DNA from: Promethearchaeota archaeon
GTDB taxonomy: Archaea > Asgardarchaeota > Lokiarchaeia > Sigyniarchaeales > SOKP01
Direction: 5' to 3'
Length of the DNA stretch: 64,000 nt
Assembly: GCA_019057795.1 (NCBI GenBank)
Contig: JAHLWS010000073.1
Span: forward strand, 64,001 to 128,000
Positions 23,131-39,812 of the stretch are shown here, piece by piece (position 1 is the stretch's first letter; each line of letters starts with the position of its first letter). Below the pieces are notes generated by a model that saw only the letters and a list, made by a program, of their open reading frames with translations, did no database searches and was not told the origin of the DNA. Position numbers and translations under genes: made by a program.

Positions 23131-24591
23131 TCACTTAATATTATTAATAATTTTCAGCAAATTTAAATCTTTTTTAGATTTCAAAGTGAAACTCCGTAAT
23201 TCTTTTAAAGCGATTGGGTCACCTTTTTTCAGGGTTTGGTCTTTTGTTTCAATCCCTACAATTACTAATCCTTTCGTTCCAAATGTACCAGTAATTTTAG
23301 TAAATGGGTGCTCCAATTTGCGACCAATGATTTTTTTAGCTCCTTCGTAGCTTTGGGCTAAACCGCTACAAACGATCCCTTGAGTATGTTCGGGGTTTTG
23401 AATAAATCCTTTCTTTATTTTAAACTTATACAATTTTGGAGGATCTTTAATTACGGTGATCAGTTTTGCTGCGCCAATTATCCTTAAAGTTGTCGGTGGA
23501 AGGTCCAATCGACTTAAAAGCATTGTATTTCTTTCCTTATTAATAAACACTTTTTCGTTTAACCATAAAAAGGCATTGTATGTATTTAAATCACCCGAAC
23601 TTTCTAATTGAATCTTTTTCCCATTTTTTTCATAATAAGGAAATAAGTTTCCCGTAACTGTGAACATCCCTATTGTAACATGCACTTGGGTCCCAAATTG
23701 AGTCTTAGGTTTGAATAATTTATTTTGTTTTACTCGAATATCAATTAGGTCGCAAAAGTCGAATGCTTTCTTATTATTTGTAGCGTAACAACCGCGATAT
23801 ACCTTCTTAATATCTAATCCTTTTATATTAACTCCAACTCTATCACCTGCTTTAGCTTCATCAACATTCTGGCGAAAAATTTGAATAGATTTGACTCTAC
23901 CTGAACTATTAACCGGGATCACATCTATATTCTGGTTTAGCTTTAACCTCCCCCTTAAGATTGTTCCCGTAATTACCGCTCCTCTTCCCTTTATTAAAAA
24001 ATGGTGATCAATTGGGATGATAACACTTCCTTCGTAATTTCTTTTAATATCAAAAGTTTTAACTTTCTCTAAAATTCCTTGCTTTAAATCTTCAAATCCG
24101 AGTTTTTTTTTTGCAGAAACCGAAAAAATAGGTATATCCGAACCATATGAGGTCGATCTAAAAAATTCTCTAATTTTCTTAACTTCTGCATCTAAATCTC
24201 CTTTAAATAAATCAATTTTGTTAAGTACGACTATAATATCTTTTATATCGAGCGACTCTATCATTATTAAATGTTCTCCAGTTTGAATCTGAGGGCCTTT
24301 AGTTATATCAATTACGATTAGAGCACAATCAATAATCTCCACTGAAGAAGCACTAATTTTAATCAAATCGGCGTGACCAGGACCATCTACTAAGGTGATC
24401 AAATATTCCTCTAAAATAAAACTCGTAAAACCTAAATCTATTGTAATACCCCTTTCCTTGCTCTGAGGATGAGCGTCAATTCCAGCAGTTGAAATAAACT
24501 CGCTTAAAACTGCGGCTACTGCCGTCTTGCCGGAATCTATATGACCAAAAAGACCGATATGGACGGGAATTTTCTTCTCAATTTTTAACAT
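23131..24591 (-). CDS. selB: Selenocysteine-specific elongation factor (archaeal SelB / eEFSec type)
   Basis: GHIDSGKT, ERGITIDLGF, DGPGHADL, QTGEH, NKID, DHHF..KGRG, RLDLPPTTLRI, domain IV GTFGTKG. Confidence 0.93.
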   Translation of the reverse strand: MLKIEKKIPVHIGLFGHIDSGKTAVAAVLSEFISTAGIDAHPQSKERGITIDLGFTSFILEEYLITLVDGPGHADLIKISASSVEIIDCALIVIDITKGPQIQTGEHLIMIESLDIKDIIVVLNKIDLFKGDLDAEVKKIREFFRSTSYGSDIPIFSVSAKKKLGFEDLKQGILEKVKTFDIKRNYEGSVIIPIDHHFLIKGRGAVITGTILRGRLKLNQNIDVIPVNSSGRVKSIQIFRQNVDEAKAGDRVGVNIKGLDIKKVYRGCYATNNKKAFDFCDLIDIRVKQNKLFKPKTQFGTQVHVTIGMFTVTGNLFPYYEKNGKKIQLESSGDLNTYNAFLWLNEKVFINKERNTMLLSRLDLPPTTLRIIGAAKLITVIKDPPKLYKFKIKKGFIQNPEHTQGIVCSGLAQSYEGAKKIIGRKLEHPFTKITGTFGTKGLVIVGIETKDQTLKKGDPIALKELRSFTLKSKKDLNLLKIINNIK

Positions 24592-26259: not shown

Positions 26260-26970
26260 ATGGATTCTTCGAACTTAATTTTCGATGAAAATCTTATTAA
26301 GAGCAAACTTTATGACTGCGATTCACCTTTGAGAATATCTCTTAAAGACAATTTTTTTACAAGTTCAGCAGTGCTTTTTTCTATCGTTCCATACAAAGAA
26401 AAACCCTACGAATTAATATTAATTCATCGTTCAAATAGAGGAACAAAACATAGGGGGGAAATGTCGTTTCCAGGAGGTAAATTCGAAGTTAATAACGATA
26501 AATCCTTAGAAGACACCGCTTTAAGAGAAACTGAAGAAGAAATTGGCGTACCAAGGAAAAATATTAAAATTCTTGGTTGTCTTGACGATTTTCCTACAAT
26601 GACGAAGTATATTATCACCCCATTTGTAGCAATTATTGATCAAAATCAAAAATTAATTAAAGAGGATAGAGAAGTTCAGAAGATATTAAAAATTCCTGTC
26701 GATTTCTTCTTAAGTAAAGAAAATTTTCGAGAACAAGCTGTAGACATTGATGGCAATAAGTTCCCTATATTCTACTTTAATTACATCAATAAAGAAAATG
26801 GCAAAAAATATACTATTTGGGGAGCAACGGCTTATATGATTGTAACTTTTCTGGAAGATTTATATGGATTTACTCTTTCAAACTTAGGATTGGAGCGATT
26901 TAGACTTGAAAAAATAAAAGATTTAAAAGAGTATCTTAAATATCGAAACCAAATTACTAAGAAATTTTAA
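26260..26970 (+). CDS. Nudix hydrolase, CoA pyrophosphatase (NUDT7/8-like)
   Basis: SAVL, HRGEMSFPGG, TALRETEEEIG, IWGATA. Confidence 0.92.
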   Translation: MDSSNLIFDENLIKSKLYDCDSPLRISLKDNFFTSSAVLFSIVPYKEKPYELILIHRSNRGTKHRGEMSFPGGKFEVNNDKSLEDTALRETEEEIGVPRKNIKILGCLDDFPTMTKYIITPFVAIIDQNQKLIKEDREVQKILKIPVDFFLSKENFREQAVDIDGNKFPIFYFNYINKENGKKYTIWGATAYMIVTFLEDLYGFTLSNLGLERFRLEKIKDLKEYLKYRNQITKKF

Positions 26971-27003
26971 TAATTTAATACAATATTCAAAATACTGATA
27001 CCT

Positions 27004-27672
27004 ATGGATTTCATTTTTGATGAGAACTTTATTAGAAAGAAACTGAAAGACTTTAATTCTCCAGATCGTCTGGCTATGTCGCACGAATATTTTATTAATT
27101 CTGCCGTCATATTTCTAATTCTTCAATACAAGGATAAACCGTATGATTTGGTTCTATTTCGAAGAACCAAAAGTAAAACAGATAAACATTCAGGAGAAAT
27201 GTCATTTCCTGGAGGTAAATTCGACTCAACGCTTGATAAATCTTATTTAGATACGGCGTTAAGAGAACTCGAAGAAGAACTAGGCGTTTCCAAAACAAAT
27301 GTCAATGTTTTGGGCTCTATAGACGACCATCTTACACCTAAAGGATTTATTATTACTGCTTTTGTAGCCTATATCGACCAAGATGTAAGAATTGTAAAAG
27401 AAGAAAACGAAGTACAAGAAATTGTAAAAATACCAATAACTTTTTTTGCAAATAAAAAAAACTACAAAGAAAGGACTTACAATCTCAAAGGAGACCTAAT
27501 TGGAGTTGGTAAATTTAATTACAGATCCGCAGAAAATAAAAAATATGTCATATTTGGTGCGACATCTCATATTATAGTCAATTTTATTGACACAATCTAT
27601 AATATTGGATTAATGACACCTGGATGTCGACGAATAAATTGTGAAGACATTAAAGATAGAATAATTAGATAA
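27004..27672 (+). CDS. Nudix hydrolase, CoA pyrophosphatase (tandem paralog)
   Basis: HSGEMSFPGG, TALRELEEELG, IFGATS. Confidence 0.92.
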   Translation: MDFIFDENFIRKKLKDFNSPDRLAMSHEYFINSAVIFLILQYKDKPYDLVLFRRTKSKTDKHSGEMSFPGGKFDSTLDKSYLDTALRELEEELGVSKTNVNVLGSIDDHLTPKGFIITAFVAYIDQDVRIVKEENEVQEIVKIPITFFANKKNYKERTYNLKGDLIGVGKFNYRSAENKKYVIFGATSHIIVNFIDTIYNIGLMTPGCRRINCEDIKDRIIR

Positions 27673-27756
27673 TATCGAAAATTTAAAATAAACATAAAAT
27701 TCATTTAAATCTATAAATATTAAGTATTAACAGTAAATCTATATAATAATTAATTT

Positions 27757-27912
27757 GGCCCCCGGCGGTCGGAATTTGATTTGATCATTTCGATCTCATA
27801 CGATAAGTGGTCTCTGACGCTGGGCTTCAAACCCAGTTATCCTGCGGAGGGATAGGGGTTCGATATGGAAAGAGATTTGTTCTTTTCGAGGAAATCCCCC
27901 TGGGGGCCGCCA
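27757..27912 (+). tRNA. selC: tRNA-Sec (anticodon UCA) with two BHB introns (27774-27806 in the D-arm, 27865-27894 in the T-loop); mature length 93 nt
   Basis: 9-bp acceptor GGCCCCCGG/CTGGGGGCC + GCCA; anticodon arm CTGGG-CTTCAAA-CCCAG; long variable arm; 4-bp T-stem; after splicing a 7-bp D-stem GTCGGAG/CTCTGAC and T-loop TTCGATT; adjacent to SepSecS. Confidence 0.93.
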
Positions 27913-27945
27913 AATTCAAAATTTAAGTAATTTCACGGGAAATTT

Positions 27946-29313
27946 ATGTTTGACTTTAATAAAATTATTGATTATTTTAAGAGCACATCAATTCCACAAA
28001 ATATGTTAGATAGAGGGCAATTAGTTTTAAACAATTTCTTAAAACCAATGAAAACGCTATTTGAGCAAAGAAATGTCCCTCAAAAGCCTTGGAGTGAAGG
28101 TCAAATCGAGTTTTTGCTTCAAATGCTTTCAAATATGGATACCGACAAAGATGATAAAGCTTCTCGAGTAGGGGAGCGTGAAGCAAGAATTGCATCGAGC
28201 TTACACTTAAAAACTTCAAGTGGATTTTGTCATGGGATAGGACGAAGTGGATTCTTAACAGCACCACAACCAAAAGCTCCTGGGGGCTCTATAATGTATG
28301 AACTCAGTAATTATTTAGCTCTTAATTTCCTTAGAAAATTTGGAATGTCAAATATAAAAAAAGCAATCGTCGTCCCTCAATGCACTGGAATGTCTTTAGC
28401 TTTATGTCTAGGGGCGCTCAGACCTAATTGGGATAAAAAAAATTTAATTAATAAAAGAACTGTAATTGTTCCTCAAATTGACCACAAATCTCTAATAAAA
28501 GCTATTAATTTGATGGGAATGAGAATAAAAACTGTTGAAGGGAAAATTTTTGGGGATGCAGTTAGAATACCAATTGAAGACATTGAAGCTAGTTTAGATA
28601 GTGATTGTTTTGCTGTAATCTCTTTAACAAGTTTCTTTCCTCCTCGAGAACACGACAATATTAAAGAGATTAGCAAGTTTGCTAAAAAAAACGATCTGGT
28701 TCATATAATTATTAACGCCTATGGTGTACAAAGCCCAGAATGGATGAAATTAATCCGGGTTGGTATCGACGCTGGTAGAATTGATGCAATTATTCAATCA
28801 ACTGATAAAAATGTTCTTACTCCTGTTGGTGGAGCAATAATAGCATCCCCAAGCGAAGAAATTATAACCAAAATCAGCCAAGCTTACGCAGGTCGCGCTT
28901 CTGCTGCTCCAATTGTGAACTTTCTTATATCAATGTTATCTTTAGGAATAGAAGGGTACCAAAAACTCTTAAGAGAACAACAAGATAATCGAAAATTACT
29001 AGAAAATCAATTAAAAGGAGTTGCCGAAAAAATCAACGAAAAAATTCTCGATGTGTTTAATCCTGTAGCTGTTGCTGTGTCTTTAAATAACTTAAAAAAA
29101 GAACAATTGTTCGCGTTAGGGGGCGCTTTATACAACTTAAGAGTCACTGGTCCACGAGTATATAATCCTGAAGAAAGCGTATTTGGAACGTGTTGTACTG
29201 AATATATAACACCATATATCGTAATGAACGCCGCTATTGGGGCAACATCAGAAGATATCGTTTCTGCTGTTGAGAGATTTGAAAAAGCTTACGATCAAAT
29301 AACTCAAAAATAA
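27946..29313 (+). CDS. spcS: O-phosphoseryl-tRNA(Sec) selenium transferase (SepSecS)
   Basis: MDTDKD, RVGEREARI, FCHGIGRSG, PQPKAPG, IDHKS, IINAYG, QSTDKN, YAGRA. Confidence 0.96.
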   Translation: MFDFNKIIDYFKSTSIPQNMLDRGQLVLNNFLKPMKTLFEQRNVPQKPWSEGQIEFLLQMLSNMDTDKDDKASRVGEREARIASSLHLKTSSGFCHGIGRSGFLTAPQPKAPGGSIMYELSNYLALNFLRKFGMSNIKKAIVVPQCTGMSLALCLGALRPNWDKKNLINKRTVIVPQIDHKSLIKAINLMGMRIKTVEGKIFGDAVRIPIEDIEASLDSDCFAVISLTSFFPPREHDNIKEISKFAKKNDLVHIIINAYGVQSPEWMKLIRVGIDAGRIDAIIQSTDKNVLTPVGGAIIASPSEEIITKISQAYAGRASAAPIVNFLISMLSLGIEGYQKLLREQQDNRKLLENQLKGVAEKINEKILDVFNPVAVAVSLNNLKKEQLFALGGALYNLRVTGPRVYNPEESVFGTCCTEYITPYIVMNAAIGATSEDIVSAVERFEKAYDQITQK

Positions 29314-39709: not shown

Positions 39710-39812
39710 GCAGACATTGCCTAGCCTGGTACGGCGCCGGCTTGGAGCGGAAAAACGGTCCCAGAAAGCCGGTGTGTGAAAGCATCCGAGGGTTCGAATC
39801 CCTCTGTCTGCG
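39710..39812 (+). tRNA. tRNA-Ser (GGA) with a canonical 19-nt 37/38 BHB intron (39748-39766)
   Basis: Acceptor GCAGACA/TGTCTGC + G73, long variable arm, T-loop TTCGAAT; BHB helix TTGG/CCAG with bulges AG^C and AA^A. Confidence 0.93.

Follow-up and report, generated by a model that had tools for sequence, protein, structure and literature searches.

Does the stretch at 27757-27912 on the forward strand of the window (the whole 64-kb piece of Promethearchaeota DNA that was analysed) encode a working selenocysteine tRNA, although two insertions divide its D arm and its T loop? The original prediction took it for an archaeal 9/4-type tRNA-Sec with two non-canonical bulge-helix-bulge (BHB) introns, and the evidence below supports this reading, in which both introns would be removed from the transcript. 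We consider it very probable that the locus encodes a functional tRNA-Sec(UCA), whose primary transcript bears two BHB introns that, we infer, are spliced out.

Gene structure and mature fold

The tRNA-Sec gene is 156 nt long and consists of three exons of 17, 58 and 18 nt, all of which lie on the forward strand, as do both introns. Exon 1 (27757..27773) carries the 9-nt 5' strand of the acceptor stem, two linker nucleotides and nucleotides 1-6 of the 5' strand of the D stem, after the sixth of which the D stem is divided by intron 1 (27774..27806, 33 nt). Exon 2 (27807..27864) begins with the final nucleotide of the D-stem 5' strand, the D loop TGGT, the D-stem 3' strand and the anticodon arm, including the anticodon TCA (27827-27829), and continues in its 3' part with the variable arm, the 5' strand of the T stem and T-loop positions 54-59. 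Intron 2 (27865..27894, 30 nt) is located at T-loop 59/60, and exon 3 (27895..27912) comprises T60, the 3' strands of the T stem and the acceptor stem, G73 and an encoded CCA. Read along the DNA, the order is the 9 acceptor nucleotides, the 2-nt linker, GTCGGA, intron 1, G-TGGT-CTCTGAC, the anticodon arm, the variable arm, GGGG-TTCGAT, intron 2 and T-CCCC. The 3' CCA (window 27910-27912) is encoded in all 109 orthologues that were parsed, while a 2022 review describes archaeal tRNA-Sec genes as lacking an encoded CCA (PMC9499178). The region upstream of the gene is too AT-rich for any TATA match to carry meaning.

Joining the three exons in silico yields a 93-nt RNA, which ARAGORN calls as tRNA-SeC(tca) and RNAfold folds into a full 9/4 cloverleaf with a minimum free energy (MFE) of -52.1 kcal/mol. 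This cloverleaf has a 9-bp acceptor stem, a 4-bp T stem, G73 and the encoded CCA, as well as a D arm with a 7-bp stem (GTCGGAG/CTCTGAC) and a 4-nt loop (TGGT), which is formed only without intron 1. The anticodon arm has a 6-bp stem and the 7-nt loop CT-TCA-AA, and the variable arm consists of 6 bp and a 5-nt loop. Both programs thereby recover the spliced product that had been expected from the sequence, in its length, its 9/4 fold, its D stem and loop and its encoded CCA. On the basis of the UCA anticodon, the 9/4 fold, G73, the 7-bp D stem, the 4-nt D loop and the long variable arm, the gene belongs to the archaeal tRNA-Sec type.

Detection by standard scanners

It had been anticipated that standard scanners would miss this gene, and they do. 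ARAGORN found no tRNA in the genomic sequence of the whole 64-kb window, and nothing with its intron option either, while an Rfam scan at the gathering score returned no hit for the unspliced gene. In a permissive scan, the unspliced sequence scored 28 bits against RF01852, the model proposed as a check, which is under the gathering cut-off of 47; in this alignment the T-loop insert was taken as an insertion and the 5' half was misaligned. Intron-less orthologues from the same genus reach 57-64 bits against the same cut-off. When the T-loop intron alone was removed, ARAGORN gave a mis-framed 87-nt tRNA-SeC call, which was rejected.

Another tRNA gene of the window, at 39710-39812 on the forward strand, is likewise uncalled by ARAGORN. 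This 103-nt gene matches RF00005 with 42.5 bits; its variable region is long, and 22 nt are inserted in its anticodon loop. In the Promethearchaeota genome studied, tRNA genes with interruptions seem to be the norm.

Orthologues and predicted splice junctions

An intron-less orthologue was used as the BLAST query against 135 genomes of the family, and matches were obtained in 121 of them, with breaks at the same two positions as the introns of the window. Among the 41 other species of the same GTDB genus, 16 have an uninterrupted 93-nt gene. The comparison with related tRNA-Sec genes that the original prediction called for is clear at this point, as the intron-less orthologues read straight across both predicted junctions, with joints (...GGTCGGA-GTGGTC... 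and ...TTCGAT-TC...) that equal them exactly. The spliced sequence shares 87 of 93 positions with its closest intron-less orthologues, and exon 2 is 95-100% identical to orthologues throughout the genus.

Intron states could be parsed in 109 orthologues, of which 47 have no intron, 34 have both the D and the T intron (D+T), and 15 have the D intron only. The others carry an intron in the anticodon loop (position 37/38) together with the T intron (10), the anticodon-loop intron only (2, G065 and G071) or the T intron only (1). In five genomes the gene is 97-99% identical to that of the window and both introns are present. Among these near-identical genes, the 93 exon nucleotides are invariant and the five variable sites are confined to the 63 nucleotides of the introns (Fisher p = 0.0097), which points to selection on the exons.

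Orthologues spliced in silico at the predicted sites, along with naturally intron-less genes, gave 54 distinct sequences from 97 genomes, in which 99.5% of the stem cells of the cloverleaf are standard pairs. Compensatory changes are many across this set; the pairing of the 9-bp acceptor stem covaries, and one covarying pair, 17:24, spans the junction of the D intron.

The complete 3.34-Mb chromosome CP070831.1 (G141) possesses two tRNA-Sec copies, around 777,900 and 1,145,200 (loci L166, L167 and L227), both interrupted by the D intron alone, the sequence of which differs between them. Downstream of the copy near 777.9 kb, SepSecS is represented by no more than its initial 87 residues, which points to the duplication of a segment comprising the tRNA and the 5' end of SepSecS.

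Bulge-helix-bulge motifs of the two introns

At intron 2, the T stem GGGG/CCCC (27855-27858 with 27896-27899, 4 bp) forms the outer helix of the motif, followed by the central helix TTCG/AGGA (27859-27862 with 27889-27892), which has three standard pairs and one G-A, and by two 3-nt bulges, AT^A (27863-27865) and AA^T (27893-27895). The inner helix, TGGAAAGA/TCTTTTCG, has 8-9 bp. The 30-nt insert is thus present at 27865-27894 with all three of the helices that had been read there. Its BHB forms part of the MFE structure of the precursor, many orthologues have a perfect TTCG/CGAA central helix, and the site is the published position of the Lokiarchaeota intron (PMC4989117).

The 33-nt D-stem insert at 27774-27806 also has the helix and the bulges that the original prediction assigned to it. 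Its central helix pairs GTCG of the exon (27768-27771) with CGAT of the intron (27801-27804) in four of four positions, and the bulges GA^A (27772-27774) and AA^G (27805-27807), of 3 nt each, lie on opposite strands. The inner hairpin (27775-27800) has one mismatch and a 3-nt bulge in its helix. The outer helix amounts to 2 bp only, which corresponds to the relaxed HBh' form. In the MFE structure of the precursor (-61.9 kcal/mol), the D stem of the mature tRNA still has six of its pairs, and the conformer with the BHB of intron 1 (-57.1 kcal/mol), which competes with the mature D stem, lies 4.8 kcal/mol above this structure; among orthologues, the median gap from MFE to BHB is 4 kcal/mol. Thermodynamic folding by itself did not recover the BHB of intron 1 as the minimum-energy fold.

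These energies leave room for a different reading, that the T-loop insert alone is an intron and the D-arm insert survives maturation, giving the tRNA an enlarged D arm. It would fit the precursor MFE, where the D stem is closed and the insert folded unlike a BHB, as well as the 2-bp outer helix, and for Loki tRNA-Sec no intron other than that of the T loop has been published. Covariation, however, tracks the BHB pairs and not the MFE alternative. In the 35 distinct D introns that were aligned, 96.6% of the cells of the BHB are paired and 7 of the 11 pairs have changed on both sides; none of 500 shuffles reached as high, and with the partner displaced by 1-3 columns, pairing fell to 24-47%. 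Covariation thereby supports the predicted BHB fold of the D intron. The central helix has four of four pairs in 36 of the 39 distinct D introns; in other orthologous D introns it appears as GTTG/CAAT, and in one lineage as GGTT/AACC, shifted by one nucleotide with an identical spliced product. The placement of intron 1 goes beyond chance, since the BHB geometry (at least three of four central pairs and at least three inner pairs) occurs at 51 of 4457 slid boundaries (1.1%) versus 28 of the 39 distinct orthologue D introns.

Retention of the D insert is also at odds with the two 3-nt bulges, which always frame the exact junction of the intron-less orthologues, and with the recognition of tRNA-Sec by PSTK. 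This enzyme reads the D stem (Sherrer 2011, as cited in PMC5330540), and a 33-nt hairpin would break the 7-bp stem. Moreover, Asgard tRNAs commonly have BHB introns in the D arm, which annotators often overlook (bioRxiv 10.64898/2026.10.13.758758). An enlarged D arm is therefore highly unlikely, and the D insert is best read as a second BHB intron. Its motif is relaxed (HBh'-type) and its BHB competes with the D stem, so a broad-specificity endonuclease would be needed to cut it.

Genome context and Sec machinery

A gene encoding SepSecS (O-phosphoseryl-tRNA(Sec) selenium transferase; 27946..29313, forward strand, 455 aa, PF05889, E 1.9e-116) starts 34 nt past the CCA of the tRNA-Sec and is the sole copy in the genome. 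The tRNA-Sec is found at most 600 nt upstream of SepSecS in 46 of 52 related loci. The archaeal selenocysteine-specific elongation factor aSelB/EFsec (23131..24591, reverse strand, 486 aa), with the domains PF00009, PF03144 and PF21440 (aSelB domain III), is encoded 3.2 kb upstream of the tRNA-Sec and is the best selB match of the genome (232 bits). Two consecutive genes for NUDIX-domain proteins of 236 and 222 aa (26260-27672, forward strand) are located between aSelB and the tRNA-Sec.

The assembly comprises 4.95 Mb in 87 contigs and is 100% complete by markers. No convincing second tRNA-Sec was obtained among the RF01852 matches of this genome, which leaves 27757-27912 as the one tRNA-Sec gene detected there. 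Two selD/SPS genes (172 and 197 bits), each with one in-frame TGA, are adjacent to each other outside the window (G000:C26:15739-18079) and look like tandem selenoprotein SPS genes, and a PSTK-like gene scores 143 bits, which is below the TIGR03574 cut-off. The presence of SepSecS, aSelB, the TGA-containing selD genes and the PSTK-like gene indicates that the Sec trait is in use, with 27757-27912 as its only predicted tRNA.

In addition, a contig labelled Candidatus Nanopelagicaceae bacterium, i.e. an actinobacterial family (L220, DATKTW010000158.1), carries a SepSecS that is 83% identical to that of the window, and it is probably a mis-binned Asgard contig.

Splicing enzymes and RNA data

Two EndA paralogues (PF01974 and PF02778) of 200 and 201 aa, 32% identical to each other, are encoded in the genome, along with an RtcB ligase (561 bits). 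In one pairwise alignment, the Tyr/His/Lys catalytic triad is present in the first paralogue only, within the aligned stretch. The endonuclease is presumably a two-paralogue (alpha-beta)2 enzyme, the subunits of which are assigned from this single alignment. This agrees with the published Asgard EndA, which is described as an (alpha-beta)2 enzyme with a loop giving a broad substrate range (PMC5829648).

In the mechanism that we propose, EndA would cut inside the 3-nt bulges, at 27773|27774, 27806|27807, 27864|27865 and 27894|27895, and RtcB would then ligate the three exons into the 93-nt archaeal 9/4-type tRNA with its 7-bp D stem. The mature tRNA would be charged by SerRS and phosphorylated by PSTK, converted by the adjoining SepSecS and delivered to UGA codons by the nearby aSelB. 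We infer cleavage, ligation, their order and the charging of the product. Because the D-stem intron divides the 7-bp stem recognised by archaeal PSTK, splicing would be required for the Sec pathway.

RNA data were available as assembled contigs of four metatranscriptome runs. The sole RNA-library contig covering the gene, from run X15, is 319 nt long (27704-28022), retains both introns and has a G-to-A variant at 27891 that is shared with sister genomes. It may be a precursor, a tRNA-SepSecS co-transcript or DNA carry-over. At a depth of 24, this contig starts 53 nt before the tRNA and extends unbroken into SepSecS, which could reflect co-transcription of the two genes or merely DNA in the library. 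Run X16 had no contig at the tRNA-Sec locus, and in run X19 SepSecS alone was covered. A contig from run X20, in which exon 2 leads into an intron-free T loop, was ruled out as a splice product, since it has another acceptor sequence and genomic flanks and comes from a relative with a D intron only. No joined exon product was seen in the contigs of the four runs, by which splicing is neither shown nor refuted.

A decaying tRNA-Sec pseudogene, inactivated by two insertions and with nothing spliced, would likewise go uncalled by the scanners and leave no spliced RNA in metatranscriptome contigs. But the gene is the sole tRNA-Sec candidate of a genome that has kept SepSecS, aSelB, the PSTK-like gene and two TGA-containing selD genes, and in its close relatives the introns vary while the exons are invariant. 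Furthermore, both inserts lie in BHB motifs, with covariation counted for the D intron, and the D+T layout has been kept in 34 of the 109 orthologues, across several genera. A pseudogene is accordingly very improbable, and a functional, intron-bearing tRNA-Sec(UCA) is the reading that we retain.

Comparison with known intron-containing tRNAs

The original prediction also held that tRNA-Sec genes are usually intron-less, which fails in Asgard archaea, where a T-loop intron (PMC4989117) and three-intron genes (PMC11291895) have been described. Mariotti et al. (2016) reported a Lokiarchaeota tRNA-Sec (GC14_75 from Loki's Castle) in which the 7-bp D stem is intact and one intron, of 31 nt, lies in the T loop (PMC4989117); this intron was later restated as the only one in an archaeal tRNA-Sec (PMC5330540, PMC9499178). 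The GC14_75 gene belongs to the same phylum and resembles the present one in its UCA anticodon, G73, 9/4 fold, 7-bp D stem, 4-nt D loop and long variable arm, in its T-loop intron of about 30 nt, and in having EFsec a few kb upstream, on the opposite strand of its contig. Its D arm is uninterrupted, whereas a second intron of 33 nt lies in the D-stem 5' strand here, and its SecS is found on another contig, whereas SepSecS follows immediately downstream here.

Valentin-Alvarado et al. (2024) listed SeC(UCA) genes of Atabeyarchaeia-1 and -2 with '3 introns observed' (PMC11291895, Supplementary Data 4), for which tRNAscan-SE gave 0 introns and R2DT 3, with Infernal scores of 46.6 and 36.3; these genes were found only via Secmarker, at low Infernal scores (PMC11291895). 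They are likewise Asgard tRNA-Sec genes with several introns, but they come from a different Asgard class and have three introns rather than two, and their table gives no intron positions. Sun et al. (2021) mentioned 'unusual insertions and deletions' in some Lokiarchaeia tRNA-Sec, which were not termed introns (PMC9723677).

As for D-arm introns in general, Goswami et al. described Asgard D-arm inserts with a median of about 22 nt and BHB motifs, which are overlooked by tRNAscan-SE, and found them to be the most often missed class of Asgard tRNA introns, repeatedly gained or lost (bioRxiv 10.64898/2026.10.13.758758). The D intron studied here is similar, as a short D-arm insert at a BHB motif that is missed by a standard annotator. 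Their census differs in covering tRNA genes generally, with a focus on Freyr-, Jordi- and Atabeyarchaeaceae, and tRNA-Sec appears in its methods only.

The multi-intron tRNA genes of Thermoproteales/Crenarchaeota, whose transcripts are cut by an (alpha-beta)2 EndA, are reviewed in PMC4090602, and the enzyme types are treated in PMC5829648. These tRNAs resemble the present case in their D-arm and T-loop BHB introns, relaxed motifs and heterotetrameric endonuclease of broad specificity, while they belong to other phyla and are elongator tRNAs and not tRNA-Sec.

Asgard tRNA-Sec genes that several BHB introns divide and that annotators overlook are already on record. In view of the T-loop intron published in 2016 and the three-intron genes published in 2024, the novelty is less than the original prediction assumed. 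In the literature searched, no account was found of a Loki-type tRNA-Sec with an intron in the D stem, or of the distribution of that intron in the family or its covariation. The result is a modest extension that will not surprise a specialist but serves annotation and offers a small model of how introns turn over, and a two-intron tRNA-Sec leaves the picture of Sec decoding and tRNA splicing unchanged.

Possible intron turnover in the family and its meaning

A quick maximum-likelihood tree of the SepSecS protein was built for the 46 loci with the close upstream tRNA-Sec. Mapped on this tree, the intron states (D+T, D only, anticodon loop with T, and none) require at least 11 changes (D intron 8, T intron 8, anticodon-loop intron 1). 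These counts are blind to gain versus loss, and the tree is an unrooted one from one gene and a short search. The clade of the window is D+T (support 100), and its sister relation (support 98) joins it to a clade of ten loci, all without the D intron and all with the anticodon-loop intron, which arises once on the tree, in this sister clade. D+T is found in every major clade, and in one well-supported clade, whose very short branches measure 0.014-0.03, D+T, D only and no intron are all represented. From these two patterns, the unrooted single-gene tree suggests that D+T is an old state that has undergone repeated recent losses.

In practical terms, surveys of the Sec trait in Asgard archaea rely on Secmarker, tRNAscan-SE or Rfam, by which two-intron tRNA-Sec genes are lost; Huang et al. 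(2024) used Secmarker and tRNAscan-SE with default settings (PMC11227280). With 62 of the 109 parsed orthologues of the family interrupted (about 57%), calls of 'tRNA-Sec absent' in such genomes need an intron-aware recheck.

For the family itself, we propose only tentatively that the tRNA-Sec/SepSecS locus is a live record of BHB-intron turnover. If this were true, the loss of archaeal tRNA introns, whether stepwise or of both at once, could be followed in one essential gene, as could the gain of an intron at the canonical site; simultaneous loss is conceivable, e.g., through recombination between the gene and a copy of its spliced RNA. In close relatives the locus has zero, one or two introns, distributed over three positions, and it offers a compact system for the gain and loss of archaeal tRNA introns.
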